NCBI RefSeq assembly: GCF_964204645.1
Contig: NC_134026.1
Span: 28,120,150-28,184,149 of the forward strand
Reading direction: 5' to 3'
Length of the DNA stretch: 64,000 nucleotides
Origin: Tubulanus polymorphus
Lineage: Eukaryota > Animalia > Nemertea
Below, in pieces: positions 3,377 through 56,713 of this stretch. The notes beneath the pieces are model-generated. The model did no database searches and was not told where the DNA came from. It was given only the letters and a program-made list of their open reading frames with translations. The translations under genes and the position numbers were made by a program. How positions within the stretch are numbered: the stretch's first letter is position 1; each line of letters opens with the position of its first letter.

Positions 3377-5742
3377 TCACTGATCATCTCCATCAGGAGC
3401 AGTATTTGCGTTTTGATCTTCAACAACTTGAAAAATGGCAATAACGTCATTCTTAGGTCTCGATACTGGCAACCATTTATATTTGAGATCTTGTCCTTCC
3501 GGTAATTTCCAAGTATATTTAGACACAAGTAGGGCAGCAGTCATCTGTTGAATAATTGAGTAAATCAGTATATATTTTTTTAGCTTTATTGACAATGTGT
3601 GAGTATTTGTACTACCTTGATGATTCCCCATGAGAAATTTTTACCAACACATCCACGCGCGCCACTACCAAAGGCTACAAGCTTATCGCGGTCATCTTTA
3701 TTACTGAAAAAAAAATCCCAATATTTACAAACAGCCATTCAAAATTTCCAAAAAAAACTTCCTAGATTTTATCTCAACTTCTGAGGCCCAGTAGAGCCTT
3801 CGTAATTACCTACCATGTCATCCACCGTTCAGGAATAAATTTTTCTGGTTGACTGAATATACATGGATCCCTGTGTATAGAATAAGTTGTATACATTACT
3901 GCCCAACCTTTACTGAACTTATATCCAAGAACTTCGAAATCCTGTAAAAAGATAGTAGACATCAAGTCACGTCTTGGGCAAGTTTTGAAAGCTGAAATAT
4001 CAAACATCAACTTTACTACCTTGCGTATCAAGCGCCGGCCAGCAGCGAATGGAGGCCACAGTCTAATGGTTTCTAGAAGAATACTTTCAAGATAATCTGA
4101 TGATGACTGCATGTTTTTCATAGTAGACTCAATCTCCTGATATGTAACAATAAAATAGATAATCAATACTACAGATTGCTTGTTGTAGGCCTATATTTCA
4201 GTAGCAAAAGTAGTAGTAAAATTCAGTCTCTTACATCCAAGTCAAGAGTAGATCCTATAACAAATGAAGTTAATATCGATGCAAATGCTTTTGGAACCAA
4301 GGCTGATGTGAGCAGTAATAAATGGTTGACAATGGATGATTCTGTTGGAAATGATGATGGTAATATCAATTTCAAGAACCCTTTAGCAGAATTCTGAACC
4401 TTTTCCTCTATGATATGAATTAACTTGTCCTAGAAGTTAAAAAAAAAACATTCATAGATTTTTACTGTCTTAATTTTTCAGCCCTTAATCCAATCACATG
4501 ATGACTACCCGGTACTTACCCTTGCTTGCACAGCTTTTGCAAATGTGGATTTACCCATTCCAAGTAATTTCACATTTAAAGGGACAGAAATTATACCTGA
4601 AGAAATATGTTAAAGGTATTTGTGAGTGTCATTCCAATAACAGTAAAACATTAGATAAATTAGTTTGACACTAACCATGCCAGTGAGTTGTGGTAAGATT
4701 TACAATTGTCGATGCTAATTCAGTAGATTCTTCAAAGTCTAGATCAAGAAAAACGCTTAAACAAATCTCCGTCATCATACGTTTAAAGAACTCATACACC
4801 TTGATCTGAGCTGTGTTAGTAAGTTGACCCAATGATTTCTGTATTATGCTATGGAAAAACGAGAAATTTGTAACTTATCATGTTTATATACATACAATGG
4901 AGAGATATTCAAGTGTATTTGTCCTACCTCTCAATCTTTGAATGAAAGTTGGACATTTTTCCATGTGAAAAAAGATTTGACATCAACAAACGTAGATTAT
5001 GCGCTTCAGGTCCTTAAAACATGTTCAATGATATTTTGAAAATGAAATCACAAATTGAAGAAAAACCTGCAACATCATCGAGATACAACTTAACTATACC
5101 TTCTGTAAATAGGATATTTTGTCCGAAGATTTCGCCCATTAATGATTTATAACCCAGCTCCAGATTATCTGTTTGATCTATTTGAATAAAATGGTCCAAT
5201 TATTGATGAAACACTCAGTGTTGTAAGGAAAATAATAAAGAAAATCCCAAACTTGGAAAGGAAAACAAGCCTGAAAAGGTTTCTATTAGTTTATGATTTC
5301 ATCTTCGATGTTTGGACTGCAGTATTCCTGATTGATAAGGCTCAATTAGTCAAGATGTCAAAAAAAATTTATCAATTAAGGAAACCTTTTCAGACTTGAT
5401 TTTCTTTCTGGGTAGGGACTATGGGATTTTCTATTGAAATTGAATACTTATTTAGATTTGCTTAATCAGAAATAACTGGTACCGAACAACAGTGATATCT
5501 ATAACTAACGGCATCTACTTACCGCTTAGAAGTTCCCTAGCAACTGTATTAGACCCGACGAACACAGTCGGTTTATTCAGAATACGTGATACAAAAACCC
5601 GCGATTGATGTTCATTGATTTTAGTTTCGACAAAGTCGACCGGATCGGCATAATATTCATAAGATTTGTCCCCAATGACGGGAAACCCTGCATTCCCTGG
5701 TATGCCATTAAATCCATCATCTAATGCGGCCATCATCATCAT
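3377..5742 (-). CDS. Cytochrome P450, CYP26-clan-like (CYP16/'CYP120-like' type), ~10 exons
   Basis: Spliced translation gives IPGNAGFPVIG hinge, ExxR (ETIR), PERW and heme motif FGSGARGCVG (~3645-3675). GT-AG introns, e.g. exons 5523-5742 and 5100-5177; stop at 3377-3379. Confidence 0.92.
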
Positions 5743-6507: not shown

Positions 6508-9500
6508 ATGGCGGCTAGCGTAAGAAAACTTCCGAATCTCAAGATTTGCGTCGAGAAAAGTGACGATGAAGAGTCTAACGATGCTCGGGGAACTGAGACA
6601 CGCATTTCGTCGGACGAAGGAGAACAGACGGAAGTGAGTAAATTAGAAGAAGTAGAATTCAGTGTCGCTATTAAGGATTTAGACGCGATCAAACAGCGAC
6701 GACGTGAACAATATCCAACAACAGGATCACTTCCGGGTTTGAGTGCTGTGAGTATAGAACGCCGTTGAAATATTCCAGTCATGCTTTCCCATCATCCTAT
6801 TTCATGTGTTTACACTCCAAATTTATCTCAACTAACAGACTTCTGGTCCGAAGAAGTATGAAAATCGATCTGGCGATTTCATAACCGGTTTTAATCTTAC
6901 TACTGAGGTAAGTATGGACTTTTTTGTTTTGATTTATCATTAGTTAGGCCTAATGTCTGTTTATTAATTGATGAGACCTGTTTTTCTGGGATATTTTGCT
7001 TACTTTTTGGGGTACATACCTCATTTATGTCTTAACAGAATGCCAAAAATCGCGGACAACAACTGAATATCCGATATATTTCCAGTTCTGTACCAATTAG
7101 ATGGATTGGCAAAAAGACTCCTTAAGTCCAGTTTAATGAGAGAGAAAATCCTCCATTTTGTCAGATTTCTTGGATTTGAACATTGTTACCATGCCTACGC
7201 CACCCTGATTTAGTTGTTGAGACCCCACAAGAAAAATAACTTCATTTCGTAGGCATGGTGACAATGTAAAAATTCAAGAAATTTCACAAAATGGAGGATT
7301 TTCTCTCTCATTCAATTGGACTTAAGGAGTCTTTTTGCCAATCCATCTAATTGGTACAGAACTGGAAATATATTGGATATTCAGTTGTTGTCCGCGACTT
7401 TTGGCATTCTGTTAAGACATAAATGAGGTATGTACCCCAAAAAGTAAGCAAAATATCCAAGAAAAACAGGTCTCATCAATTAATAAATAGACATTAGTGC
7501 CGTAGTGGTTTTATTTGACTAGCCCAATGAAATTACATCCATATCCTGTGAGTGGTATTGTGTTAATGTTACTTTTAACATTTATTCTAGGAATTCAATG
7601 AGAAGAAACAACAAAGAGCTAAAAGGTTTGGTATATCATCAGATATACAACCGAAAGCTGTTACTGAAGAAGACCTTACTGGTTTATATGAGAGGTATTA
7701 TAAATATAGGCCTATTGGTTCTGCGTGTATTTTGAATCATTTGTTTGAATATAATGTTTATTCGATGTTTTATCTAAATCCAGTCTTGGAATCACGGAAC
7801 AAACAATAAGAAGGAGTGAACGAGGAATTCGCCCCGAGGCCATTCATCTGAGGGGAACTCATGAAATGAGCACTAGAGATGTTTTCAACTATTTCAAAGA
7901 TTTTTCTCCAGGCTCAATTGAGTGGATTGATGATGCCTCTTGTAAGTTTCTGATAACGAATTAAGTTGTTTCCATTGTTCTATTCATATTTCGATTATAT
8001 CTTTTTTGTTACTAGGCAATGTTGTTTGGATGGATCCATTGACTGCTGCCAGAGCTATGTTTCATTTGAGTTTTCCCACATCTAAACCAGAATCTAAAAA
8101 GAAGAAACCGGTGTCGAAACTGCCTGCTACCAGTGAGAGTATGGAAACTGAGAAAACCACTGAGAGTAACGAAACTAAAGATGGTAAAAACCTGAATAAA
8201 TTTTCATGCTTTTTTCATTTTTACACTGAATGATTCATATTTGATACAGAAATGATTCTTGTGTTTTAGAAAAAATGGAATCATCAGAGAACGCTAAGGA
8301 TTTACTGTTCGATGACGACCTAGATTTACTTAGTGATGATGAAAAAGAGAACAAAAAAGATACGCAAGAAATTAAACAGTCCAATGAGAACGTTGTTGTT
8401 TCTGATGAAAAGCAAGATGTGGTGTCAGAAAAAGCATCAGATAAAACACCTTCAGAAGAGTTAGAGGTATAGTTTCCTGAAACACTTTCAATGGAGCTCT
8501 CCTTCTCGAGCCGGTTGACACTTCAATGAACTTTTTGTAGGATGGAGAAATATCTGATGATGATGCAGGAGAACAGATGGCTGCTGATGTGACAAATGAT
8601 AGCAATCAAACACAGAAAGCTGATTTTGAAAATCTCTTCAAACCTCCTGGCATCTGGAGGATTGGCTTGCCTTATCAAAAGAATGAACTGTTCATGAGAT
8701 TTGCTACTAAAGGTGAGGAACCGCAAATTGAGGCAAGTTATTTTTGAATTGATAACAGCTGATCGATAATGGTGTAAAACTGTATGATTTCAGCTGACAA
8801 AAAATTGCCAGGTGCAGAAAGGAAGAGTAGATATTACCAAAAATATGGTAATCCAAACTATGGAGGTATGTGAAATAACACAAGATTTCTCAATACAGTA
8901 TGTTACAAACATCCTTACTATATTTGCTTAATCTCCGTTTTAGGTTCTAAGGGAGTTATCAGTATATCGAGGTAGGTAAACGTTGTTTCATTGTAGTTAT
9001 ACCATAGAGCAAAGGTGGGCTTAATTCACGTTTTTGATTTATTTAGAAAGCGCCGGTTACGTGATCGCCAACGTAAAGAGGAAAACTTTGAAGCGAAACT
9101 CGCAATTGAGCTTCAGAAAAAGGATTCGAAGTTAGATTCAAAATCAACGTGGTTATACGATGTTGAACAAGAACTACACGATGACCAACGTTTAATCGAT
9201 ATGCAAGATTCTGATAATGAATCAATGGATGTAGAGTTTGAATCAATACCGTCCAGTAGGTCACCGGCTCAACAGAAAAAGCCATTATTTTCTAAATCTA
9301 GTCGAGAAGCCATGTCCCTACGATTAGAAGGAGATTCAGGTAAACATATTACATCGCTATATTGAGGCGATATTAACTGTTTACAGTGTTTGATTATTAA
9401 TCGATTGATCTTTGAAAATAGACTCGGATAGCAGTTGTAGTGAGCCGGCTGATGGGGAGGAGGATGATCTGCAACTTCATCGTAGATTAAATCGCTTACC

Positions 9501-10069
9501 TGTCAGTGAAGCGGAAAACTCGGATGTTGATGATAATTTGCCACCAGTTATGAAGAAAAGGAAAATGAGGATGTACGCGGATGATGAAGAGAAAAAGATT
9601 AAAAAAAGAAAAAAGTAAGTTTTGTCGTTAATTATTTAGCATAAGATTAATAATAAATTTCATTTTGTTTTCGAATAAAATAGTTTATAACGATATGAAT
9701 TTAAAAGTTTCTTGACGTAGATTATTTGTAATTTTCAGAAAAATGTGGGAAGAACAAGTTATTACTGCTGGTGCTAGTGTAACATCCGCTGGTGACGCTC
9801 GCGATCGAATAATGAAACGTCAATTAGAACGCGAACAATACAGTACCGTTACTGTTTCTAGATATCGGGATGATAACAAAGATGAAAGCGATGATGATAG
9901 TGATGGTGATGATGATCGTCCCGTCGATAAGAATGCGAAGACTCAGTCGGGGGTCGATCTCCGATCTAAGTTGAGCAGTCGTAGGAAACATAGACATTCA
10001 CCGAAATCATCTACTAGTAAAAAGTATTTACCCCTACGAATTGAAGTGACTGCTTCTGATGATGATTGA
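6508..10069 (+). CDS. NCBP3: Nuclear cap-binding protein subunit 3 (multi-exon)
   Basis: Exons encode KYENRSGDFITGF, RAKRFG, RRM RPEAIHLRGTHEMSTRDVFNYF..IEWIDDASCNVVW, LFMRFATKADKK, SRYYQKYGNPNYGG and KMRMYADDEE, all typical of NCBP3. Confidence 0.93.
6950..7497. mobile_element. Foldback/MITE-like element in NCBP3 intron 2
   Basis: ~250-bp near-perfect inverted arms (6950-7199 / 7248-7497) with 48-bp spacer; right flank continues ...GCCGTAGTG (reverse complement CACTACGGC), left end lacks this. Confidence 0.85.
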
Positions 10070-10782
10070 TATTTGATATTCTGCAGCGTTTGCGAACCGT
10101 GTTTTTTAATAGTTACTGCTATTTAAATCGAATAGTCGATAGGTATTTTTCACCGCAATTTTCAGAATCACAGGAACATCAAAAACTATACTGCATTTAA
10201 GAAGAAAATTAGTTCTCAACAACTTCAATAGTGTAATGTTTGCGTGTAATCACGTTATCTTTTCATGGCATGAAAAAATCTTGTTCATGTTATATATTTA
10301 TATAGAAAGAATGAGAATGAAATTGTATAATATAAAGAATCCCTGGAATATGGTGTTTTCATTATTGCTGCTGAATCACGTTTCTCATAGATTTCGATTT
10401 TTATGATGGTATCAATCCACAATCTTAGACCTGACCCTTCAAAAGAGTTTGACTTGAGACGAAAATTGCCATTCAATGCCGCTTGGATTCATCTCTGCTA
10501 GACGTTGATTTTATCACCACTCTTTCGAAAAGTTATAATCCAGATTTTACAGGAGACATTAAATCCTTGATGGATGGGATCCGGGCTGCAAATTGATCAA
10601 CTAGCAATCGATCGATGTATCCGGCCCGACAGATAGTTGTCTTCTGAACGGTTAGTGGCGGTAAATAACATACTCTCTAGGGGGCGGTGTTTGCAAATAA
10701 ACTTTGACAGGAAGAATATTTTTTCCGGTTGCATCTCAGATTTGACAACTTTTACTCCGTTGAGAAATAGATTTACAGTAAG

Positions 10783-13700
10783 ATGGCAACATACAGCGAC
10801 ACAGTATCGATGTCAGAAGAGTTTGAACGATGGAGGGAAATTGGAAATCGGGAAGATGTCGTCATGTTGCAGGTAACAACCACAAACAACCACCACCGTT
10901 GACTTACTTACTACACTTGTCAATGACAATGTCATGTATCTACTCCCTCTACTCTTCTCTGTCACACTGTCCAGGTTTCTCAGTGATGATAGTCCTGCTG
11001 CCCTTACTATTTATGAATACTTCTAAACATGCCCTTGGAACTTCAAAATTACATTCTCTGAAATGATATAGGCCTACCGCTTCATTTAAATCCATTACGA
11101 CATAAGTCTCTATATTATTGTCATAATTGTAGTTAAACTGCAAACTGAAGAAAATAAAGAAAACAATTTCTATTACAGGAAAGTGGTAACAATGATGGGT
11201 CAGTTTTGCTGGAATTGATTTTGGTTGGTCAGCATGAATTCAAGTTGCATTGTCCAGAAGGTTAGCACTAGAGACTTAATAACAGAAGAGTTATAGTCCT
11301 AATTCAATGATACGATGCTAAAGCCGATTTTTGATATTGAAATATTCTTATAAATTCAGGTTATCCTGAACATATTGACAATTTCTATGTGGAGTCATTT
11401 AATCCTGCTATTTCTATTTGGGCAAATATGTTTAATGAGGTAAGCTCTGCGTTGCCTTTTTTAGCACTTCATTCATAATTGTATCCTAGAAATTTTTCAA
11501 ATTTTCTTCTTATTTTCTAAAAATAGTTTTTACTTGACTGTCAGCGTCCATTGACTCTCGGTGAAGTCCTCGAAAAGTATGTAAAAAGTCTTAAAATGTC
11601 TGAGAATTCAGCGATTGATCTAGCAATGTAATATCTGCTTCAGGAATCAGTTTTCGATAGATTTCTATTCATTGAATTATTTACAGGGCTGTTAACCTTT
11701 TCAAAGCTGATCAGAAAGCACAGAAACATGAAGTAAGCGTTACATACAATTATGATGAATGCCCTATTTGAATACACACAATGGCTGAATGAATTTAATC
11801 ATTATTTGTAGGAAGAAGAAATGGAAAGTGAGAGTGATTCAGATGAAGTAAGTTGCTGATTCTTTAATAAATTATTCATTGATTTGTACCATGTTTCCAA
11901 AATGCACCATTTTGCTATATAGGATATGTGCGGTTTTGATGATGAAGAATTATATACAACAGATATGGAGTTGGTCATCGCTAGAAAGAAGGTACATGTA
12001 CAACACTTGGAGGATTATTTTGCGGCATTGTCGCCCTGATAGTTGATCGACCCCTATAGATCCTGTTGATAACATGTATAATATCAATTTCTTTTTTAAG
12101 AAACGTTGGATTGAAAAAGAAGTAAAGCTACGAGAAGAGCTTTGTAAACAAATACCGGAAAAACATGCCGGTAACTCTGAAACTGACGCTATAGGTTCGT
12201 GTGCATTTCATATTGTTCATTGATAATGGACTTTTTGTGTATAATGTTTATTGATATTTACTTGCAGGTAAAGGGACAGCTCAAAATAAACAGATATTTA
12301 CAAGTGTGGCCGCATCAGGAATACTTATCAATGATCTTGTAAAAATCATGCAAATGAAGGTAAGATTATGGCTTATAACTGCCATTGACTAATTGCAACT
12401 TGATTCTCTGTAGCAGCCAGCGACAATCATGTTTCAAAAACCCATCAACCTATGTGTCCTTGCAAATGCCACATATTCTACTTTTTGCAATGTGAAATGA
12501 AAGTCTCTCCCAGTTGCAACTGAAATACACTGCTCTTGCGAATAAGAGACTAGATGCGCTCCTATGTCCATCTTAAGATATAACTACTGTCACTTGAAAT
12601 ATGTTGTTACTGGTTCAAATTTTTTTTCACCGACTTATTTCTCATGATTCATAAAATTTTTAGGATGAAGGGGTAACTGCTGAACCAATTGATGACAATA
12701 TTTATAAATGGCTCGTCCAATTAGATAAATTCAACCCAGAAAGGTAAAGGCATGGTAAAAAAAAGTTTTATGCCTGATAGTGAATTGTTTCTGAAGTAAC
12801 GTTACTTATGGTTGTTGTATTGATTTATATTTGTAGTGATTTAGCTGCTGATTTAGAGATTATTCATGAAAAGTTTGGATATGGATATATAGAATTACAA
12901 TTGGTACTTCAATATTTTACCATTAAACTGCTGTGGATGAATTTATTGATGATGCGTGACGTAACTATTTGAATTGTTTTCAGGATTTTGCTCTTGATCT
13001 CTACCCGTTTTATCCTCCACTTGTCAAAGTTGTTCGACCCAGATTACAGGTAAGATATCGACTAAGCATCCTCTTGATGTACTGTATATTCAAACTGGCT
13101 GTATTACGCTGTAGTGTGTTTCAATTTTAGCCTAGTCTTATGCAGAGAGTGACGAGTATGGAACTACTCAAACTATCTCACTGGAACCCAGCTCGTGATA
13201 TGGCCAGTATTGTCTTTGATATAAAACAGTTAGTACAAATATGGGCCAGGTAAAACAACGTTTTCGTTTGTGGTTCCATTTAATATATGGGATGAGAAAT
13301 AAAAAACCTGAGTACTCTGTTTGTATTATTTCAGGCTTGATGTAAATAGTTTGCGTAATGATCCCATACGGTATCCAAATGGTAGTTTTGTAGATATAGA
13401 ACATTTTCTACTACGTCTTGCCTTAGTAAGTACTATGTTGGCGCACTTCAGAAGTGCTATGAAATGTTTTACTAACATTTATTCGCGATTCGTTTTCTTA
13501 GACTAGTGAAGTAAATCCAAGAGCAAATGAAAAGTACCAAATGGATGTTGATCAAATTCCGAGACCAGTAGAAGTACCTGAAAAGGTAACAGACGATGAA
13601 TAGAATAAAATTCTATGAAGTTTGAAATCATTTTGAAATCACTGCAATTTCTGTTTGGACAGGAAACTGATCAAAATAAAAGCAAGAACAAAAATGAATG

Positions 13701-16700
13701 TTGGGAGAAAGGTGTTGGTTATGGACATGGCGGACGACCAGGTATGTCCAGTCTTATTTTAAACGTTTTCCTGAAATTTCTCTTAATCTTGAAACTGATA
13801 TGATTCGCATATATGATATTATCAGGTTGGGATTACAACGCATACTTAGCGGCACAGCGAGAGAAAGATAGACAGATCGAAAATGTGTTACAACAAATTC
13901 TGCAAGAGTTGAGATTGTTATATGCAAATCACGCTCCGCAGTTGAAACCACGGCGCCATGTCACAAATCCTGATAGTTCTCAAGCTATAGATCCTGTCGA
14001 TGACATGTACAATATTCTTGAAGGTTCAGCACTTATACCATTCATTGAGGTATCTTTCATTCGAATTTCATCAGTGATAATTTCAAACCTTGCATCAAAG
14101 CACACGTTCACATATTTATGTTTTAGGTTTATATGAAAGCTGATTCATTCTTGGAGATTTGTCGTCACACTTCTGTAAGTAACTATGCATCATGGTTGTC
14201 GTTAGAATAATGCTAAATTATGCACATGTTGTCGTTCATTTTTCCTAGGTATACAAAGCACTGGTTGATATTATCAGAGAAATTGGTAAGTAATGATCAT
14301 TTAGTTGTTTTGAAATTGTTTGTATCTGAATAATTATAGCTTTGGTCTATTATTACAGCGATGCAGCCAAAACTGTTACCTCTGTTGGCGCAATTACCAG
14401 GACAAATACATTCAGTTTATCAGCTATTAGAGAATTTAGAAAGAATGGTGAGATACGACTTGTAAATATATGATGTCAAAATGTAACTGAATATATATGA
14501 CATTGTTAGAATTATCAGAGATTAATTGAAAAATTCATTATATGAATTACGCTTTTTTAAGGCGAGTGTGCTGCTACAGAGGATGTGTAAGGCTGGGAAT
14601 GGGAGTGTTCCGAAAGGTGCAAAACGTCGGTACGAAGAAGAAGAATGGGCAACATCGACAAGCGCTGCTGCTTCACTGTTACCCTGCTTACAAAACTGTT
14701 CTCAAAGACAAAGCTCTGGACCAGAATATGAACACAGCACACAAGAGGAAAAATTAGCTCGTGATTTTGTGACCCTTTTTAGAGATCTTTCTGGTAAGTT
14801 TCAAGTTTATTTTCCATGTATATGATTGAGAAAATACATAGTATACATAAATAGTTTTTTTCTCCAAAATTGTCTCCATATTTTTCATATGTTTTCAATT
14901 CGAGGTGAATTTTCAATACTGCAGATGCATTTAAACGGATAGGATTATTGAATGGAGTTGAAATGGATGAGAGTGCTGCTTCAATGGACTGTGATATAAC
15001 AACTACTCAACCTGATACTTTACCACCGCTCCCCGTACCAGATGTTCCACAACCTCAAATACAGGTAAGTTTATTTCAAATATCAAAAAAGGAACTGTAG
15101 ATACATTCCTTTTCAAGAAAACACTATCTTTGATTTCAGGAAACGACAGAGGGTTTGTACATACAACATTTAAAACAACTACAGTTTGATACGTATTCTA
15201 TGGAGCGTAAGTAAATCAAATGAATTAATTGTTTAGTCGTTTAATCCGTTCATAGCTCAGTTCATTTCTTTTTCAACAGTTGAAGGGCATAGTAAGCATC
15301 ATTTTGCCACTGAATTCAAGAATCAATACCGTATGACTCAAGCTCAGGTATTTTTATTCAAATCTGTATCAACATTCAATTATCCAATGTTTGATCTGTC
15401 AATCGATCAATATTATAATGATTTTAGATGTGTCGTATTGTTCAAGAACTCACAGCTCTTCCTTCATCCCTTCCAATTGACCTATCTTCTTCAGTGTTCT
15501 TTCGCTCTGTAAGTAGTTTGAATGTTACTGATATACTGGTATTGATTTTGGTGAATATACGTATCAATGTGATATGTATGAAAATTCATTCAATGTTTAA
15601 TGTATACGTTTTTAGGATGATGATAAAATGACATTAGTGCGAGCTCTTATAACTGGGTAATTTACATAAAGATTTTAATCACGTTGTTGATACTGTTCTT
15701 TTTTATACTGTTAATGAGACTGCATTTCTATCTCTATTAGCCCTGAAGGAACCCCTTATTCCGGAGGCTGCTTTCTATTCGACATATATTTAGATCGTTA
15801 CTACCCTGAAAGACCACCGAAAGTGAACTTTCAGGTGAGCTTGGATATCGTGTAAGCAAAAAATAAAGGTGTTAAAAGTTTATGTTATAAATGTCGTGTA
15901 TAACATGTTTTACAGACAACTGGTAATGGGACTGTTCGCTTCAACCCTAATCTCTACAAGTATGTTTAATGATAGTAAACAATATATTTGTCATTAGACA
16001 TTTTTGATTTAGTTGTTATTCCATTAATTCTCTTGAATACATTTGCTTTTGTAGCAATGGGAAAGTGTGTTTATCTTTGTTGGGAACATGGGAAGGATCA
16101 GCTGGTGAAAAATGGGACCATCGTACCTCTACTCTACTTCAGGTTCGTATCATAAATGAAATACGTGGTAATTGATCATCAAACCAGACCATGGATTGTA
16201 TTGCTTCTTATAGGTTCTAGTTTCTATCCAGTCTTTGATCTTCGTGCCGGATCCATTCTTTAATGAACCGGGGTACGAACACTCAATCGGGACTGAAAAT
16301 GGCAAGAAAGCCAGCGATGACTATAATAAAGGTAACGCAAGCTCATCTTGTTATCATCTTTGTTGAATTTGCTGTTGGGATGAAATTGTTGGTAATTTTG
16401 TCCATTTCATCCAGATGTCCAGATTAACTGTATCAAGTATGCAATGTTGGATCAACTACGACATCCTAGTCCTGGTTTTGAGGAAGTCATTCGCACACAT
16501 TTTTACTACAAAAAGGAAAAATTGTTACAGGTAAAAATAAACTGTCTATTAATGCATTCATTATCACATTTGGAGAGTTCAAATTTCTGGATGTAATGGT
16601 AATTATGTATTTTTTGTAGGACATCGAACAATGGTCGAAGATGATTGAAAAATCTGATTATATCAAAAATCTAATTTCCACACTAAAGCAGGAATTCAAC

Positions 16701-16748
16701 AAATTGAAACTACCGATTCAGAAGCCGCAGTCATCATCAGACACTTGA
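10783..16748 (+). CDS. Two-module ubiquitin-conjugating protein: RWD-like + UBE2Q-like inactive UBC + BIRC6-type C-terminus with active UBC; ~32 exons, roughly 950 aa
   Basis: Exons give [40 protein letters not shown] (UBE2Q-like), then [33 protein letters not shown] and [70 protein letters not shown] (BIRC6-type UBC). TGA at 16746-16748. Confidence 0.9.
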
Positions 16749-17561
16749 CGCAATTTACAATTAATCTTTCAAATGCTAGTAAAAATCTTCGATGTGTCGG
16801 TTGAGTTTCTTGATTTTTGCTTGAACTCTGCGATCCAAAAATTAAGCTTCACATATCTCAGAAGATATATGCGAGTCAGTTATTCATGGAAACCTGATTC
16901 AGATGAATTGAATTCATAGGTCGGGATATAGATTTGTTTAATATGTAACTGATACTAGTGACAATTTAAATCCTACTGTTTCGATCGTGTCCTATTGTGG
17001 TAAATTCGATGTTTCTTTATTCTGTCTCGTTTCTTAAAGCATTTAATGTTCAGTGAGTGCTCTGTCAAGTGAACCAATAATTTATAACAAAATTTCATTT
17101 TTTATCATGATTAAAAAAATCGGGAAATTCATAACTGTAGTTGGACAATGTAATTGTAGTGTGGCTGTATTATTACTATTATTTTGCACGTTTTTTATGT
17201 TATGTAATTTTTCTGTTGTGAGACTCCAGGTCTGGATGTTATTTTTTGTTTTCATCTCCTCATGTTCTCTCAGGCTATACATATGGGTGGGAACTACATG
17301 AACCCTCTGAAATTTGAGTTGTGTAACGATGAAATAAAAAATTTGTTTTCGTAAATCATTTGTCGTTCTTGTCTATCATTCTTTGTTCAGTTGTTCTGCG
17401 ACATCAGCTAAAATCTCTACCCGCATTAGAACTTGTAGGCATCGACCGTATTGTTTCGACTGTTTCAACCTCTTTCGATAAATAGTACGCACCGACAGGC
17501 GGCGCTTTCTTCGATTATGGTCGATTTTATTTTGGAAAAAGTGTCTCTTTATTAATGAAAA

Positions 17562-19777
17562 ATGGCCAATAGGACTGTAAAAGACGCCAATTCCGTGAAG
17601 GGAACAAATCCACAGTATCTCATAGAAAAAATTACACGCAGTAGAATATATGAATGTCGATATTGGAAGGAACAATGTTTCGCATTATCAGGTAACAGTG
17701 AACACTCTTTTTTGTAGTTTCAAAAATGTTTATGCTCCTCCTTCATTTTTATCATAATTTTTATCACGTTTTTGCGGTGGCATCATGTTTTTCTTTTTTT
17801 CAGCTGAATTGCTCGTCGATAAAGCGATGGAGCTAAAATATATCGGCGGCGTATTTGGTGGAAATATCAAACCGACACCATTTCTGTGTCTCGTATTGAA
17901 AATGTTACAGATTCAGCCGGAGAAGGATATCGTAGTCGAGTTTATTAGAAATGCAGATTTCAAGTGAGAATAAATGAGATGAAGAGTGATTTGTTCAAAT
18001 CTACAGTTGTTAAATGTACTTGCTTGTTATTATTTTACAGGTATGTGCGCGCTCTTGGAGCGTTCTATATGAGACTTGTCGGAACATCATTAGAAATTTA
18101 CAAATATCTCGAACCATTGTACAACGATTTCAGGAAACTGAAAAAACAAAATCGAGATGGAAGTAAGTTCTTCTATCCGGCACTAATCGGGATCTCGAAT
18201 CAAATTTCCGATGTAATTAGTTTTATTTTCTCTTTTTTAGGTTTTGTAGTTTGTCACATGGATGAATATATTGATGATTTATTACATGAAGAACGGAATT
18301 GTGATGTCATTTTACCGCGGATTCAGGTATCTATAGTCTGGATAACAGAGCCCGGTTTTCTAGACTGGCTATTTAGATTCTCCCCAAGGGTTAATGCCTC
18401 AACCAGGTGACAAATCACCCTTTTTAATCTTTTAGTGCCAATGAAAAATCCCTCAAATATTTCAAGTCTTTTCCTAAGCTACAATTTCGAAATGTTCTGG
18501 TGCAAGATCTCCTAGTCTTTAGCCATTGCTGGGCCTCTAGCACTCGCTTTTTGGGGGAATAATTCTGTAGTGATTGTCCTGGTCTATCAAACTGCATTAT
18601 TTACTGCATGCTAATGGTGTTTGTAGAAACGTAATGTACTAGAGGAGAATAATGAACTAGAACCTCGTGTAAGCGCGTTAGAGGAAGATATGGATGATAT
18701 GGAGGATGAAGAAGAGGATGATGAAGAGATTAATACGAGGGTAATGAATGATGATATGAAGTCTTACCCTGATTCCGGTATGGTTTATCTTGAATTGATT
18801 CTAAATGTTTTTGTTACAACAGGAAGTCGCTTCATCTAATGAGAAACAAAAAGGTCGTGATAGAGATTGGGATCGACCGAGACGTTCTGTCTCACCGGTT
18901 TATACTCGAGGCTCTTCACCACGCAGGAGGTACCTACGATTTCTAAGTTGATAATCTCCTATTATTCATATACCAGGGTCCCTCCTTCATTTCTTAAAAA
19001 AACTCCTTCAAACTGGAAAATGCTTTTAAAGGTGCTTGAAACTCTTTTATTTTGAACAGAGCACTCCTTCAATTTTGAGAAAAAGGCAATTAAAAATTCT
19101 TGTCTAGTTTGTAGTTGTACAGTAGGCTACCCCTATTTCTTACCCAGTTAGGCGGTAACCACAATCTGAGTTAAGTAGTTTAAAGGATAAGAATTTGCTT
19201 ACAAAACCACTGAATCAATGGTTTACTGAGATGAACAGTACCAATTTAGGAAGAGTCTACGGTAATTGGAATGTGAAAGTGATGCCGACGCTCCTCGAAA
19301 TTTGCTCCTTAATAACTCCTTAATATCTAGGAATGACTGATCTGTAATATGTAAACCTGTCGCGCATGTTCCGTTGTTGATTCTGGTTTATTTACAGGAG
19401 GAGCAGATCTAGAGATCGTCATAGAGACAGAGGAACCAGACGTAGTCGATCACCGCGTGAACGAAGAAAAAGATCGCGATCACCGGATAGACATCGCCAC
19501 GATGATGACAGGTAAATTGATTATTCATTTCAATTACTTTCGCCCGGATCGTGATTGCTGGATTGAGATTATCAGCTGTGACGTTAATTCTTTCAGACAC
19601 CACCATCGCAAAAGTAGCAAACACAGCCACAGAGACAAGGACAAGAAGGATAAAGATAAAAGTCATCGTTCGAGGGATAAAGGAAAGAGCAGTAAATCGG
19701 TTTCATCAGAGGATCCCGAGATCAAGGAAGCTAATGAACTTAGAGCTAAACTTGGATTAGCTCCATTAAAGTTATAA
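17562..19777 (+). CDS. PRPF38A: Pre-mRNA-splicing factor 38A (multi-exon)
   Basis: MANRTVKDANSVKGTNPQYLIEKI..YWKEQCF, KPTPFLCLVLKMLQIQPEKDIV, KYVRALGAFYMRL, RS-rich tail, C-terminal EIKEANELRAKLGLAPLK. Confidence 0.96.
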
Positions 19778-26128: not shown

Positions 26129-31558
<5,430 letters not shown>

Positions 31559-32768: not shown

Positions 32769-33845
32769 TTAGCCTTCAAATCGATAGTTGTTTTCGTTGA
32801 ATTTTGGTTTCAGGAATACAGAACGGGTACATTTCCTGAAAAGACTTGAACTAAGGCAATAAAGATAGAAATTAATGGCTGAATTCATTATCAGCGAAGC
32901 TCGTGATATTTGATACATGACAATCTTAAAGAACAAGTAAACGTTACCAGAAGAGCTGTAGAAGTCCTTAAGCAACACATAAAAATTATAAGTTAAAGAC
33001 GGAAAATGAGTTACAATTAGAAAAATTGAGATCGTCACCACAATTCCGTTTAATGAAGATGATGATGACACGTGACTTTCTGAGATCTTTTGTCTTAAAG
33101 ACATTTGTCGTTTAAACGAAATCAACATAGCAACATTCGATATTACAACCAGAAAAAGTGGTAATTTCAACTCAAATATCAAATCTGAAAATGCCATAAA
33201 AATCAATGTAACTATCACGGGCACTTTTTCATCTAATTGTGAAACACAATCATATATACCATATTCGTTTACACGGGCTCCTGCCAAAATACCTTGCGGA
33301 ATAACTCTTAGTATTCCAACTAAAACTATACATAGCGTGAAGATATAAGCTCTTCTCGGAGTACAAAGAGATTTAGCTTTCAACGCGAATCTGACAGCTA
33401 TAAACCGGTCTATACTCATTAAAGCCAGTATTAAACTGGAGGTCGAAGACGAACCACCGCCGAGTACTTGATATAATCTACAGAATGGAGTTGATAGAAT
33501 TTGCTGATCGTAATGAATTCGTAGAAATAAAACCGGCAAATAAAAACAGATGACGTTAATATCAGAAAAAGCGAGAGCTACTAAATATACACCGACTGAT
33601 GTATCGCAGAAGCGGAATCTCGGCACCAGTAGAATTCGCAAAGATGAAATATTACCAATTGTCCCGATAATGAATATAGTTGGTAGTACGATATATGTTA
33701 CGACGTAGCGGACGTATTCCTTGAAATCAGCAATACGCGACTGATCTGTTGCATTTATTCTACGTAATGACGACATCATAACGTGAAATATGAATTGGGA
33801 CAACGAGGGATCATCAACGTCACCTTCCAAAGTCAGCATTATCAT
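32769..33845 (-). CDS. Intronless rhodopsin-class GPCR (FMRFamide-receptor-like / invertebrate chemoreceptor-type), copy 1
   Basis: Seven hydrophobic segments; GTIGN, LAFSD, TM3 Cys, SIDRFIAV, NSAINFYLY, helix 8 FRK. True start may be the MMSS at ~33780. Confidence 0.93.
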   Translation of the reverse strand: MIMLTLEGDVDDPSLSQFIFHVMMSSLRRINATDQSRIADFKEYVRYVVTYIVLPTIFIIGTIGNISSLRILLVPRFRFCDTSVGVYLVALAFSDINVICFYLPVLFLRIHYDQQILSTPFCRLYQVLGGGSSSTSSLILALMSIDRFIAVRFALKAKSLCTPRRAYIFTLCIVLVGILRVIPQGILAGARVNEYGIYDCVSQLDEKVPVIVTLIFMAFSDLIFELKLPLFLVVISNVAMLISFKRQMSLRQKISESHVSSSSSLNGIVVTISIFLIVTHFPSLTYNFYVLLKDFYSSSGNVYLFFKIVMYQISRASLIMNSAINFYLYCLSSSLFRKCTRSVFLKPKFNENNYRFEG

Positions 33846-34639
33846 TAGTCTTGACCACGCGTATCAATTTAAACGGTGTTATTCATCACAGGTTACCGAT
33901 TAAGAAAATCTTTGATTTTGATAACTCTACTACTGATATCAAATAACCAATTATTGCGCCTATGGATATAGCAACTTGATAACGACTGTATGATTTTTTT
34001 CAGTGGTGAATAACGTATTTCCACACACAAACATACATATGTTTACTACAGAATTATGTGCTGTGATAATTTAGATTTTACGGTTCATGTAGATGACGAT
34101 TCTGAAATTTTGTCTTATTTTTCATTGTAGTTATCATCTATAGTTTCGTTCGTTTATTTGACGACGAAGATGATAGATATTACAGTTTACAGTTTTAGCA
34201 CAATGTATTATTTGCCTAAGTGATTATTTGATTTGCAAATAGATTTTCTTAAGGTTTTGATTCATCACGAAAATGATCCTGTCTCGTGTTATTGAATGTA
34301 ATTTTGCATATGATTCTATACTTTTTACTGGACCAGATTTTTAGTCAGGGATATGATTAACAGCTAGTAGACCACAATGATAAAATGAAATTGAGATGTT
34401 TGTACAATTACCTATGAAAAAAAAACTATATTTTGAACATATTTGGCGGAATTCCTGGAATTTTGCAATCCGAGATCGTCATCAATGTCCGATTAGCAAA
34501 GTTGTCTGAGCATGGCTGCACCATTTCCAGAATCAAATTGTTAAATTCGATGTAATAACATATTTTAATGATGTTGATCTCAGTGCCGACATCACGATTT
34601 CATTAAAAAGAACAAAATGTTTACGAGAATGGAGAGTTT

Positions 34640-35013: not shown

Positions 35014-36015
35014 CTAATCGTAGCCCGTAGGTTGCGTTGTATGTTTACTTGATCTAGTAACTAATAATACGGATCTGGTGCATTTTCTGAAATGACTTGA
35101 ACTCAGGCAATAGAGATAGAAATTAATGGCTGAATTCATTATCAAGGAAGCTCGAGATATTTGATACAGAAGAACTCGAAAGAAAAATTGCACTTTATCG
35201 GACAGAGATATGTAACGTGCCGTCCACACGTGAAAATTATACATAAGAGACGGAAAATGAGTTACAATCAAAAAAATGGAAATCGTCACCACAATTCCGT
35301 TTAGTGAAGATGATAATGACGATGAAATGTTACTTTTTGACATCGTTTGTCTAAATGACATTTGTCGTCTAAACGAAATCAACATAGCAACATTAGATAT
35401 TAGTACCAGGAAAAGAGGTAATGTCAACTCAAATATCAAATTTGAAAATGCCATGAAAGTCCGTGAAACTACCTTGGGAATATCTTTATTTATTCGTGAA
35501 ACACAATCATTGAAACCCTCTACGTCTACACGGGCTCCTGCCAAAATCCCCTGTGGAATAACCCTAAGTATTCCTAATAAAACTATACATAGTGTGAAGA
35601 TATAAGCTCTTCTCGGAGTACAAAGAGATTTAGCTTTCAACGGGAATCTGACAGCTATAAACCGGTCTATACTCATTAAAGCCAGTATCAAACTTGAGGT
35701 CGAAGACGAACCACCGCCGAGTACTTGATATAATTTACAGAATGGAGTTGACAGAATTTGCTGATCGTAATGAATTCGTAGAAATAAAACCGGCAAATAA
35801 AAACAGATGACGTTAATATCCGAAAAAGCGAGAGCTACTAAATATACACCGACTGATGTATCGCGAAAGCGGAATCTCGGCACCAGTAGAATTCGCAAAG
35901 ATAGAATATTACCAATTGTCCCGATAATGAATACAGTTGGTAGTACAATATATGTTATAGCATAGTGAACATTTTCCTTCAATTCTGCGTTACGCGTCTG
36001 ATCTGTTTCATTCAT
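35014..36015 (-). CDS. Intronless rhodopsin-class GPCR, copy 2 (tandem paralogue)
   Basis: Same motifs as copy 1; TM1-TM4 almost identical in protein and DNA. Confidence 0.93.
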   Translation of the reverse strand: MNETDQTRNAELKENVHYAITYIVLPTVFIIGTIGNILSLRILLVPRFRFRDTSVGVYLVALAFSDINVICFYLPVLFLRIHYDQQILSTPFCKLYQVLGGGSSSTSSLILALMSIDRFIAVRFPLKAKSLCTPRRAYIFTLCIVLLGILRVIPQGILAGARVDVEGFNDCVSRINKDIPKVVSRTFMAFSNLIFELTLPLFLVLISNVAMLISFRRQMSFRQTMSKSNISSSLSSSLNGIVVTISIFLIVTHFPSLMYNFHVWTARYISLSDKVQFFFRVLLYQISRASLIMNSAINFYLYCLSSSHFRKCTRSVLLVTRSSKHTTQPTGYD

Positions 36016-37635
36016 TCTACTTAATGACGACGTCAGAACGTGAAATATACAAACCGATAAGTAGATTGAGGGAACATCGAAGACACTCGTGAAACGAATA
36101 GTTATACATCGGTCTCTGTACGACTACTGACACGTGCATCTATTTGATAAACAGTGAGTATAAGTATATACGTATTTCATTTTCATATTAGCCAAAGCTG
36201 AATTCGGTTACCAATTAGGAAAATATTCGACGACGCTAACCGTGTACTAACGGTGTCGAGTAACTAATTGGTTTCATGAATTTATAGTAACTTGATAATG
36301 ATAACGACTGTATGATTTTCACGTTCGTACATCGAAAATAGAAATAGAAAATCCCACTGAAAATCATATGCTTGTGAATCATGCCTATCAACTTCATGTT
36401 GAGGTTCTTGTATTTTTCTGTTTTGGACGACGACAATTTGAAAAATCTAAACCTGGTGGAATGAACCACGTTGATATCGGTGATATACAACACTCAAATA
36501 AATTCCTTACATGTAAAGAAAGATTTCAAATCTTTAGTATCGATTGCTTAGAAAAGTCGACCGACGCTGAGTGTAAGAAATGGCTTCACATTCCCTTGGG
36601 TCCATATTTTGTCAACAATGATATAAATCAGATATTCATATTGGCGATCATAAAACTGGATCAAAGTCTCGAGGAAAAGATGCAAATAAGTGAAACGATT
36701 GCGGCGGGACAAAACATATATACATCATCGGTATAAAGAATACGACATGAATATCTATTTTTTCAATGTATTTTTTGCATTAACGTTGATCTCGTCTGAA
36801 GCTGTGGATATTTTTCTATGTCACCCGAACTGATTTGGGGATTAACAAACATTCCCCTCTCTCTATCGACCTTCTTGATTGCCTTTCGCGGTGAAAATAC
36901 CAAAGGTTGCGCCATGACCACATTTTTCCCGGTTGGCCAAAAAGTGAAAATAGGCGAGTAATCTGAATTACCCAATTCACTCTCGTAGAAAAAGGATACC
37001 GGCTGAGCTGGTCGAATTTACATCATCGTTGTTAACACACACACCATTCATTCTAATTTCGAAAACTACGCTTCTCCGGGAAAACGTTCCAATCATACAC
37101 AATGGAATGCGTTTTTTCTCTCCTCCAGACTTGTAGAAATTGTATGCAATTTTCTTATGAAACGAAATTCAAATGCAGCAAAGTTGAGGAAAATCAGATC
37201 GGATACAATTGCAGATCATATATCATAGAATCTAAAATGCCAAGATTCATACGACATACGGCCGCCGAGCCTTAGTTGTAATTGTAATTGACAGATTGTG
37301 GTCACTCGAACGTAGCTGGTTATCATGAAATGATTTATTATATTAATCAACACTAATATCACTTATAAGTTCTATCAACAATTCCCGTATCAAAAATATA
37401 TACACAGGTCAGTGCCTAACATTTTGAGGGCAGTTCTATTTCAAGAAAAAGTGCACTTTTTCACCATGATAAGGGGCACTTTCCTATTGAAAAAGGACAC
37501 ATCTTAAATATGATTATTTCACTTTTCATTTCCAAAAAACATGAAAGTTGTATCGAAATTTCGAAAAATCTTGACCCAAATGTTGACACTGACTTAAGGA
37601 CACTGTCTTAGCTACCTTCGCTGCCACTGAACCCC

Positions 37636-38686: not shown

Positions 38687-39063
<377 letters not shown>

Positions 39064-51100: not shown

Positions 51101-52482
51101 ACATAAAATCTGATTTTCGCCAAACCATGATCCGTCATCTGGAACTGTCGTAATCGATATAACGGCAGACGATTACGGTACTGTCTCGGTTGTAGTGTCC
51201 CTATTGATGTCGTGGTTGTCCATTAATTGGTGTCTATATATCTGGAATCAATTAACAGATTGAGTACGAATCGCTATCTGCATCTCGTTTGTAAAAGTCG
51301 GTTCTGTGCACATCCCACATAGATCGCAGATTTGTTGCATTCATTAGACACCTTGTAAATGTATTCATCGGATTAATGATAGCAGGGCTTCATTCTGCTT
51401 TTCCGGAAAATATCAAAAGTATTGGGAATAGAGATGATTGTTCTGACTACTTGCAGTCTGCCGTTCTTAACAAATAATTCATAAGCTAATGTATTAGCGA
51501 GTAAAAAAGTACGAATTCACAATACATTCATTAGTAATCGATCCATTTTCATTGTCGATTGATAAGCTAGGGGCATCCATTATTATCCTCAAAGATACGC
51601 TTTGCTTGGTCTTGCATTTTTGGAGCGACGATTTTCAGGATATTGCATTAAGCGAGGATAACGTAATCAAATCCGTTTCATCGTTTATAAATCTTTCATC
51701 TTCCTGATATTGATTTATATTTATTGTGCAGTGAATCTGTCCGGCGAAAGGGAATCCGAGAAACGATAAAAACATCTGAAAATGGATAAATAGGACCCAA
51801 GAGAATTTGTTTTGCCTTTGAACATGAAAATCGTCATGTACCGTGATAGATATATAAATGACGCCGTGTTTGAGACGTGTCTCTGATTCCATCCGCACTC
51901 AACCGACTACAGTCAATACACGGCTTATATATCTGTATATTACCGATGTTCAGAAAAAGAAAACAAATTCAAACTTATTACTAGACACGACCTTTTTCGT
52001 TATCGATTCACTGAATTTCAGGCATACTTTTCGTTTCGGAAGATGAATATTCTGATGAATATTTTTCAAGGTTAATTTCACTTTCGTTTTACGCTTTAAT
52101 TGATGTGGATGAATTTGAATATAATTTCCGTAATAAATTCCGGCGATATTTTGCGCTGTCATATCTCGTGACTTTTCGATCTAAAAGATGCACGCAAATT
52201 AATAGCAATTAAGCCTTATCATCCTAAACCACATTTCTATAGAGTTTGTCAAATGAACGACCTACTAGAATTATATTTATTGAAGGCACGGTGGTTTGAT
52301 TAATCAAATACATCACGCGAAGACTTTCAAACCGATTATTGCGGAATTCACTCGTGTAGCGATGTTTGCAAGATGAGCAACACAAAAGACCGACGAAGCA
52401 CGCAAGTTTTTGGATGTTTGCAGCTCGTCGCTGAAATATTTACATTCATTGGTGGAAACTCGAAACAGAAACCGCGAGTGTT

Positions 52483-52575
<93 letters not shown>

Positions 52576-52964
52576 GGAGGAGGAGGAGAGAGGGAGAGAG
52601 GGAGAGAGGGAGAGAGGGAGAGAGGGAGAGAGGGAGAGAGGAGAGAGGGAGAGAGGGAGAGAGGGAGAGGGAGAGAGGGAGAGAGGGAGAGAGGGAGAGA
52701 GGGGAGAGAGGGAGAGAGGGAGAGAGGGAGAGAGGAGAGAGGAGAGAGGAGAGAGGAGAGAGGGAGAGAGGGAGAGAGGGAGAGAGGGAGAGAGGGAGAG
52801 AGGGAGAGAGGAGAGAGAGAGGAGAGAGAGAGAGAGGGAGAGAGGGAGAGAGGAGGGAGAGGGGAGAGGGAGAGAGGGAGGAGAGGGAGAGAGGGAGAGA
52901 GGGAGAGGGAGAGAGGGAGAGAGGGAGAGAGGGAGAGAGGGAGAGAGGGAGAGAGAGAGGGGAA
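52483..52964. repeat. Polypurine tract: (GA)n grading into (GGGAGAGA)n
   Basis: ~480 bp containing only A and G on the + strand. Confidence 0.98.
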
Positions 52965-55900: not shown

Positions 55901-56713
55901 AATTATTTGATTATCCCTTGTCTTATCATCTCGTTTCACTGATGATGTGAAACACTCATGTGTTGAGGCGTTAACTATGGTTTCCCCAATAGGATCCCAA
56001 CGGAAATACATTCAACAAAATATATAATAACTTGGCAAACAGAGATAAGAGACGTTTCTAGAACACTGAAACCTATCATTTCAGTGCTTTTATTGTTTGG
56101 ATGTAGATTATTTGAACATGTTTTTTCGGTTGGTATAGTATGTAATATAAGGTTCTTGTCGATCTTTTCAATCGTCTAAGAAGAGTCAAAAAATGACTAC
56201 ATTGTACTGAATTATTCATCTATGTATACAACATTATATGAATGGTATGTTATGCGGTTTCATCTTGGCTTATCTATTATGAATAAAGCAAAGGACGCAA
56301 TTCCGTCTTAGACCTGCGATTTGCGAAAAAAAAACGTATCGAGCTTATCCGGTGAAACAGGATCAAGCGATGCAGATATCCAGGGCGAACAAACCTATTC
56401 AGTAACTACTTCCTCGATAGTCCCATTTATGGATGTACACACTGTTGCCTGGAATTGTATTATATAATGTTTCTTCATCCCGCGTATTGATAAAAATATC
56501 AAGGAATTTTGAATGAGTTAGATATACATATATAGACTTGGAGGAGTCAGATAGTTGAAAATCCTTAGAAACAAAAACAGTAAAAATCTCATTTTCATTT
56601 TCGCCTCGGGAGCTACATTTTCCCTGTGTTAGAAAACAGTATGAACATATAGATTTTCATGTCGATTTCCCTCTATTGATCTTTCAGATTTGCGATGGTA
56701 GACAACCGCAACC

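Follow-up and report, generated by a model that had tools for sequence, protein, structure and literature searches.

A Tubulanus polymorphus gene joining a Cys-less UBE2Q-type UBC domain to a BIRC6-type UBC domain belongs to an apparently ancient and unnamed family

UBE2O and BIRC6 were described in 2025 as the only two E2 enzymes that ubiquitinate without an E3 (PMC12818219). Here we describe a gene within a 64,000-nucleotide (nt) stretch of the nemertean Tubulanus polymorphus (contig NC_134026.1, positions 28,120,150 to 28,184,149 of the forward strand; hereafter the window), which encodes a protein of 946 amino acids (aa) containing two UBC domains, a Cys-less one of the UBE2Q type (UBC1) and one of the BIRC6 type with its catalytic Cys (UBC2), and which apparently represents a real, ancient and unnamed family of the E2/E3 hybrid kind. 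With BIRC6 (BRUCE, Apollon) the protein shares the final part of the C-terminal arm as well as the UBC, which is 45-49% identical to 19 BIRC6 UBCs and keeps the catalytic Cys, the NPN motif, the closed-state residues and the insertion loop. BIRC6, however, is about 4,800 aa long and carries a BIR, a propeller, a CBD, a UBL and a long armadillo scaffold, none of which is present here. Only BIRC6 residues 4155-4499 and the UBC match the 946-aa chain, the BIRC6 model PF12356 is missing, D739/D740 stand in place of human E4603/E4604, the UBC is predicted to be docked while that of BIRC6 is tethered, and the pseudo-UBE2Q half occurs in none of 117 long BIRC6-type proteins. UBE2Q1 and UBE2Q2 resemble the protein in having an N-terminal domain, an acidic linker and a Q-type UBC without HPN but with a C-terminal helix, all in the same order, but here the catalytic Cys and the Tyr of the YHW triad are replaced and a second, active E2 is fused. 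In UBE2O a C-terminal UBC of the same group (structural similarity score Z 26.4) follows an N-terminal portion that includes an acidic region, and the closed-state mechanism would be shared (PMC12818219), whereas UBE2O recruits substrates through SH3-like domains and the N-terminal half here is made of E2-fold domains. In Mms2-Ubc13 (UBE2V-UBE2N) a Cys-less E2 fold is also paired with an active E2, but as two small separate proteins and with other E2 subfamilies on both sides. In our judgment the family belongs to neither BIRC6, UBE2Q nor the Mms2-type UEVs. Several members are automatically named after Caenorhabditis elegans UBC-17, whose sequence was not among the matches listed, no dedicated check for a pseudo-UBE2Q half having been made; RNA interference against ubc-17 enhanced a ubc-25/UBE2Q mutant (PMC4025478).

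The gene forms a single open frame from the ATG at 10783 to the TGA ending at 16748, with a coding sequence (CDS) of 2,841 nt and no stop between the two halves. All 31 introns are of the GT-AG type and measure 71-306 nt (median 83), and an in-frame TAG (10768-10770) lies 5' of the ATG. A query with exon 17 retrieved a 946-aa protein (P0001; source name uncharacterized LOC141900782, Tubulanus polymorphus) that is letter for letter identical to our manually spliced model. Among four public runs aligned to the region, run X2 contains a spliced contig of 3,384 nt extending from 10697 to 17202, whose length equals the CDS plus 86 and 454 nt, with 7 inserted and 4 deleted letters from two small indels in its 3' part. 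Since this length fits the model, and since the 254 letters of the X2 record that separate exons 13 and 17 correspond to exons 14-16, both halves are located on one spliced record. This transcript evidence consists of assembled contigs of unrecorded library type rather than long reads, with 15 of the 33 joints among those listed. The single frame and single transcript proposed by the first-pass annotation of the window were confirmed, and 10783-16748 is one spliced gene giving one chain. We consider the chance close to nil that two adjacent genes, or a truncated BIRC6 remnant, were merged by this reading: annotation mergers do happen at this gene, three bivalve records fusing it to ORC1, but the X2 contig equals the model length exactly, no stop interrupts the frame, and the same chain is found in intronless viral open reading frames (ORFs) and on 3-5 kb contigs of other species. 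The two-gene reading is thus ruled out by the X2 contig and a truncated BIRC6 by the lack of UBC1 in long BIRC6-type proteins. Sequencing error is ruled out for the Ser codon at the UBC1 site, because exon 13 has 0 mismatches in both the X2 and the X3 contigs, which come from runs of two studies. This Ser codon (AGT) and the Cys codon (TGT) of UBC2 lie exactly where the first-pass annotation had placed them (Table 1).

The Pfam model UQ_con matched two stretches of the chain. For UBC1, which had been called UBE2Q-like, UBE2Q2 was the best match both by sequence and by structure, while the second-best structure reached a Z of only 11.0, and Ser293 aligned with the catalytic Cys of UBE2Q2 (1zuo, ALCMELL) and UBE2Q1 (2qgx). 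The helical region ahead of UBC2 was likewise correctly recognized as BIRC6-like, superposing on BIRC6 residues 4155-4499 of 8e2i. The Pfam UEV model gave a match below its cut-off on UBC2 and none on UBC1. Neither the BIR nor the BIRC6 (PF12356) model matched the 946-aa protein at E<=0.1, and this result, together with the in-frame stop upstream of the ATG and the start of the contig at 10697, agrees with the absence of a BIR domain noted earlier. The N-terminus had been described as RWD-like and followed by an acidic linker. The linker was found and the predicted topology fits, but the RWD assignment is weaker, as the Pfam RWD model had no match on aa 1-118 and the structural scores (Z 7.0-7.7) are suggestive only. 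Both features recur in the set of 205 two-UBC proteins, which includes isoforms and near-copies: 124 have, ahead of UBC1, a 20-aa window containing at least nine D/E, and 107 reach at least 20 bits with the N-domain profile. An AlphaFold2 model built from 126 aligned sequences had a mean predicted local distance difference test score (pLDDT) of 84.7 and a predicted template-modelling score (pTM) of 0.79. Since this pTM is close to the ordered share of the chain with UBC2 (0.78) and well above that without it (0.50), the model points to a single compact unit in which the N-terminal half, the arm and UBC2 are docked. Independent models of a megavirus and a moumouvirus protein superposed over the whole chain with template-modelling scores of 0.60-0.61 at 22-23% identity. 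A feature search of the Atlas with aa 1-370 gave no usable match.

Table 1. Positions of the gene, its transcript and its domains and key residues (window coordinates)
Feature	Position	Strand	Basis and details
CDS, 32 exons, 946 aa	10783..16748	+	Exons 10783-10872, 11179-11260, 11360-11439, 11527-11576, 11687-11732, 11812-11847, 11923-11991, 12101-12194, 12268-12359, 12664-12743, 12837-12903, 12984-13049, 13131-13249, 13335-13425, 13502-13585, 13663-13741, 13826-14049, 14127-14174, 14249-14285, 14359-14447, 14562-14793, 14925-15064, 15140-15206, 15280-15347, 15428-15508, 15616-15656, 15741-15834, 15916-15959, 16055-16142, 16214-16331, 16415-16530, 16620-16748; manual splicing, match to P0001, transcript contig
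Transcribed span, single spliced contig	10697..17202	+	5' untranslated region (UTR) from 10697, 3' UTR to at least 17202; run X2, record 9
RWD-like N-terminal domain, aa 10-118	10810..11817	+	Predicted helix, four strands, two helices, pLDDT >90; Z 7.0-7.7 to E2/RWD-type folds
Acidic disordered linker, aa 117-141, and long charged helix, aa 142-168	11812..12151	+	Structure model, family counts
UBC1, Cys-less, UBE2Q-type with C-terminal helix, aa 194-358	12300..13513	+	phmmer E 1e-15 to UBE2Q2; Z 18.4, root-mean-square deviation (rmsd) 2.4, 156 aligned to 1zuo_A
Ser293 (AGT) at the UBE2Q catalytic Cys position	13155..13157	+	Alignment; same in X2 and X3 contigs
Trp/Gly motif and helical module, homologous to the end of the BIRC6 C-terminal arm, aa 396-624	13702..14941	+	E 2e-11 to BIRC6 4283-4418; Z 18.4, rmsd 2.3, 165 aligned to 8e2i 4155-4499
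UBC2, BIRC6-type catalytic domain, aa 665-931	15062..16700	+	E 3e-75 to BIRC6; Z 36.3, rmsd 1.9, 274 aligned to 3ceg_B
E1-choice sites: D739/D740 (15619-15624; human BIRC6 E4603/E4604) and insertion loop aa 785-789 (15922-15936; BIRC6 4649-4653)	15619..15936	+	Alignment
Catalytic Cys802 (TGT), BIRC6 C4666	16068..16070	+	Alignment; Cys in 204 of 205 two-UBC proteins
Closed-state and safeguard residues S804 (16074), W809 (16089), E815 (16107), L834 (16235); BIRC6 S4668, W4673, E4679, L4698	16074..16237	+	Counted from BIRC6 alignment; residues from PMC12818219

The two sites show opposite patterns of conservation across the family. At the position of Ser293, 155 two-UBC proteins have Asn in 69 cases, Thr in 38, Ser in 22, Gly in six, Cys in five, His and Ala in four each, five other residues once each and two gaps, so that the dead site usually carries Asn or Thr and not Ser. 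The scarcity of Cys agrees with the earlier description of the first UBC as dead, and the prevalence of small helix-capping residues would reflect a structural constraint rather than a nucleophile. Near-complete retention was found in UBC2 of the 205 two-UBC proteins, with C802 and S804 in 204 each, W809 in 197, E815 in 201 and L834 in 170, in line with the claim that this second domain is live, as judged by the alignment of Cys802 with BIRC6 C4666. The sole UBC2 lacking the Cys belongs to a diverged protein of the sawfly Athalia rosae (P0148), in which the NPN motif is gone as well and which looks like a doubly dead, fast-evolving copy. Catalysis by both UBCs, as a relay in which UBC1 uses a Ser/Thr as ester acceptor or, in some lineages, a Cys, appears highly improbable. 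Ser and Thr together do account for 60 of the 155 proteins, and a Cys occupies the site in 13 of 254 UBC1 domains (from thrips, an amoebozoan, a foram, Symbiodinium and a virus-like protein), including two proteins with DUF3626 in place of UBC2, but Asn is commonest, Gly, Ala and His occur, and the Cys cases are scattered over lineages. Moreover, the Tyr of the UBE2Q YHW triad, which the Ser/Thr activity of UBE2Q1 needs (PMC10971424), is replaced by L287 here and by Met in 112 of 122 sequences. The two DUF3626 proteins (P0204, P0238) carry short Cys/His finger-like motifs in addition and are possibly an offshoot with a live UBC1.

The two-UBC architecture was searched for, as had been proposed, across eukaryotes and giant viruses and recurs in both, with an ancient pan-eukaryotic range that the first-pass annotation had not foreseen. 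A query with aa 190-420 yielded 126 proteins among 1,511 candidates (best 120 of 126 listed), and one with aa 1-370 against a 50%-identity library yielded 1,017 matches at E<=0.001 and 70 at 1e-30 (best 150 of 1,017 listed), of which those beyond the listed 150 may include ordinary UBE2Q. Among the matches listed, members were found in sponges, annelids, molluscs, a brachiopod, a priapulid, a centipede, copepods, several insects, hemichordates and lancelets, and also in amoebozoans, stramenopiles including brown algae, dinoflagellates (Symbiodinium) and a foraminiferan. No vertebrate, dipteran, nematode, cnidarian, echinoderm, fungal or land-plant names occurred among these best 120 and 150 matches, most of which are nameless, so that absence from these groups is not implied. 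Of 159 proteins in which a strong UBC1 is followed by at least 450 residues, 152 also have UBC2; most of the remaining seven appear to be truncated, and in two of them DUF3626 takes its place. On viral contigs, UBC1 above 40 bits preceded UBC2 within one ORF at 33 of 79 fetched loci, and many others were weaker. These loci were obtained with an alignment query, a viral scan with the single protein P0179 having given no matches, and a motif scan of the 79 viral loci for ubiquitin found none. Whole-chain structure matches included proteins of Harvfovirus, Bandra megavirus, Borely moumouvirus, Faunusvirus, Yasminevirus and Cafeteria roenbergensis virus, and the Atlas, with automatic names only, contains one mainly molluscan cluster and one consisting mainly of Nucleocytoviricota. 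The occurrence of the same architecture in animals, protists and giant viruses rules out a lineage-specific fusion. In databases the members are named BIRC6-like, UBC-17-like ('probable ubiquitin-conjugating enzyme protein 17') or uncharacterized, and the suspected mis-annotation as BIRC6-like is thus seen in the source names of the matches. In Crassostrea virginica a family member (P0006) is found in a species that also has BIR-bearing BIRC6-like proteins (PMC8917759), the co-occurrence being indirect. This record and two more, P0014 and P0290 from Saccostrea cucullata and Pecten maximus, are the bivalve annotations joined to ORC1; similar proteins of 943-956 aa on 3-5 kb contigs stop before ORC1, and the join is probably due to merged neighbours or read-through. 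Three viral copies (L006:3850-7863, L050:3880-7704 and L012:3739-7965), two of them on contigs larger than 1 Mb, carry about 600 extra aa that separate the N-domain from UBC1; in L050 this insertion contains a repeat and a YABBY/HMG-like match.

We favor a reading in which the protein would conjugate ubiquitin without an E3 and recruit substrates through its dead UBE2Q half, and judge this about equally likely to hold or to fail. It is the best of the readings considered because the catalytic cassette is reused, the closed-state residues are kept and a compact fold is predicted. In the proposed mechanism an E1 would first load ubiquitin onto Cys802, after which S804, W809, E815 and L834 would keep the loaded ubiquitin in the closed, reactive conformation with no need for a RING E3, as in BIRC6 and UBE2O; mutating the BIRC6 equivalents of these residues impaired E3-free ubiquitination (PMC12818219). 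The RWD-like domain, the acidic linker and the pseudo-UBC are predicted to pack on the helical arm and UBC2 as a compact unit and would occupy the place of the BIR and armadillo scaffold of BIRC6. As the weakest step, the N-terminal half would bind substrates, perhaps basic ones via the acidic linker, and the product may be multi-monoubiquitination. As regards cassette reuse, the arm module was detected in 118 of 118 long proteins, the lone one with UBC1 being a family member annotated as an ORC1 fusion, and arm plus UBC are found behind BIR, behind ZZ/F5-8/SPRY or TLDc, or ahead of an E1. These swappable front ends fit a catalytic cassette that is aimed by varying N-terminal modules. Several points weigh against the favored reading. 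The closed-state residues are probably common to the whole BIRC6/UBE2O/UBE2Z group and thus indicate a capacity rather than an enzyme working alone in cells, UBC1 carries a Cys in 5 of the 155 proteins, the Atlas's own model has a pTM of only 0.46, the UBC of BIRC6 is loosely tethered and mobile (10.1101/2022.08.30.505823), docking of UBC2 could just as well represent autoinhibition, and the substrate-binding role of the N-terminal half is proposed by analogy.

Two other roles for UBC1 have to be weighed against substrate recruitment. First, the protein might be a single-chain E2-UEV chain builder in which UBC1 binds the acceptor ubiquitin and aims one of its lysines at Cys802, as Mms2 does for Ubc13. 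A Cys-less UBC kept beside an active one across animals, protists and viruses, the compact unit predicted by the model and the near-invariant residues P270, P273, R280, P281 and W302 around the dead site would suit such a role. However, UBC1 derives from UBE2Q (Z 18.4), its similarity to the Mms2-length 5ojw chain (Z 9.3) does not exceed that to ordinary E2s, the sub-cut-off Pfam UEV match falls on UBC2, and the related hybrid UBE2O multi-monoubiquitinates, so that we regard chain building as rather unlikely and weaker than the E3-independent reading. Accordingly, of the two mechanisms suggested in the first-pass annotation, the E3-independent one gained from the four BIRC6 closed-state residues retained in the alignment, whereas the Mms2-like one remained an analogy. 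Second, UBC1 could be regulatory or structural, binding the E1, a RING E3 or an adaptor or clamping UBC2 off, with substrates arriving via partners. In UBE2Q, extensions at both termini control by steric occlusion which E1 is used (PMC12999496), a fold-back autoinhibited state has been proposed for UBE2O, and the further conserved UBC1 residues N332, E346, L349 and L352 could form an intramolecular interface. Such a role would leave unexplained the wide retention of the RWD-like domain and acidic linker (N-domain profile in 107 of 205) and the fact that many viruses keep the whole unit, and we consider it a minority possibility.

With respect to the E1, BIRC6, an antiparallel homodimer, takes its ubiquitin from UBA6 only. 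The human protein excludes UBA1 through E4603/E4604 (PMC12999496) and also through loop 4649-4653 (PMC13623948). On such a restriction the sequence gives a mixed picture. The E4603/E4604 pair is D739/D740 here, and EE is present in none of 23 animal members compared to 7 of 19 BIRC6 sequences, while the insertion loop has its full length in 22 of the 23 animal members and lacks two residues in 10 of 20 viral ones. UBA6 is reported to be lost in arthropods (PMC12999496), a group in which family members occur (copepods and insects), and exclusive use of UBA6 is unlikely to apply here. Because the pair is not EE and because members exist in arthropods lacking UBA6, charging by UBA1, or by either E1, is likely.

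Separate trees of the two UBC domains, as the first-pass annotation had called for, were quick, unrooted trees of hand-picked rows out of about 440 (103 for UBC2, 65 for UBC1 and 100 for the joint test), with the long-branch rows P0148, L047 and P0219 left out of the 100-row tree and topology test. Viral and protist labels of rows without a source name are inferred, and in the UBC2 tree the 'protist' P0186 falls among viruses. The animal members formed a group with a Shimodaira-Hasegawa-like approximate likelihood ratio test (SH-aLRT) support of 98 in the UBC2 tree and 100 in the UBC1 tree, and the viral members one with 96, including one unnamed row, and 93, respectively. Since the same animal and viral groups appear in both trees, UBC1 and UBC2 travelled together. 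BIRC6 formed its own group in the UBC2 tree (SH-aLRT 100), separate from the family, but a tree uniting BIRC6 with the animal family, which lay 12.5 log units above the free quick search, was not rejected by the approximately unbiased test (p 0.618, 100 rows). It has been proposed that BIRC6 arose by recombination between a BIR gene and an unidentified UBC gene (PMC13159474). Tentatively, and with more doubt than confidence, we propose that the proteins constitute a third, ancient E2/E3 hybrid family of three E2-fold domains (RWD, dead UBE2Q and live BIRC6-type UBC) that is older than animals, was captured once by giant viruses and lost from vertebrates and flies, possibly provided the catalytic end of animal BIRC6, and uses the dead E2 as a receptor for substrate or acceptor ubiquitin in the same chain.

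Regarding the question raised by the first-pass annotation whether the family is already functionally characterized, we found no such description in the literature searched on the two-UBC architecture, ubc-17 or giant-virus BIRC6-like E2s, although supplements could list members and older surveys of E2 architectures may have noted the fusion. The parts consulted of a review of E2 evolution (PMC11354881), an oyster survey of inhibitor of apoptosis proteins (IAPs; PMC8917759) and a metazoan IAP survey (PMC13159474) do not mention it, and the oyster survey pruned BIR-less proteins (PMC8917759). If the proposal is true, the family would add a third hybrid design, one with a dead E2 converted to a recruiting part. 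The 946-aa chain offers a tractable model of BIRC6-type catalysis. Retention of the family by giant viruses suggests an autonomous ubiquitin writer used on protist hosts, the origin of the catalytic end of BIRC6 becomes testable, and many 'BIRC6-like' annotations in invertebrate genomes are corrected.

In addition, two other uses of the BIRC6-type cassette were observed. In P0297, P0312, P0347 and P0361, which include a Paramecium protein, arm plus UBC are fused ahead of the E1 domains ThiF and SCCH, in P0297 also with FCCH and UFD, constituting a natural E2-E1 fusion that forms its own tree group (SH-aLRT 100). Proteins P0291-P0296, P0299, P0302-P0305 and P0310, of about 3,250-4,400 aa except for P0293, a 1,660-aa piece, have ZZ and SPRY, often with F5/8, before the cassette, P0304 having a BIR domain as well, and are candidate non-animal relatives of BIRC6.

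In the window, the gene is flanked by what we take, from the ORF sequences, to be an NCBP3-like gene upstream (7946-10069, + strand) and a PRPF38A-like gene downstream (17559-19777, +). Further ORFs presumably encode a histone H1-like protein (148-861, -), two similar tandem intronless G-protein-coupled-receptor-like proteins (32769-33863, -, and 35014-36123, -) and an exon of a cyclic-nucleotide-gated channel-like protein (56702-58069, +). Long (AT)n and (GA)n simple repeats at about 31350-31460, 38750-39000 and 52400-53000 give rise to spurious ORFs and a GC-skew spike.

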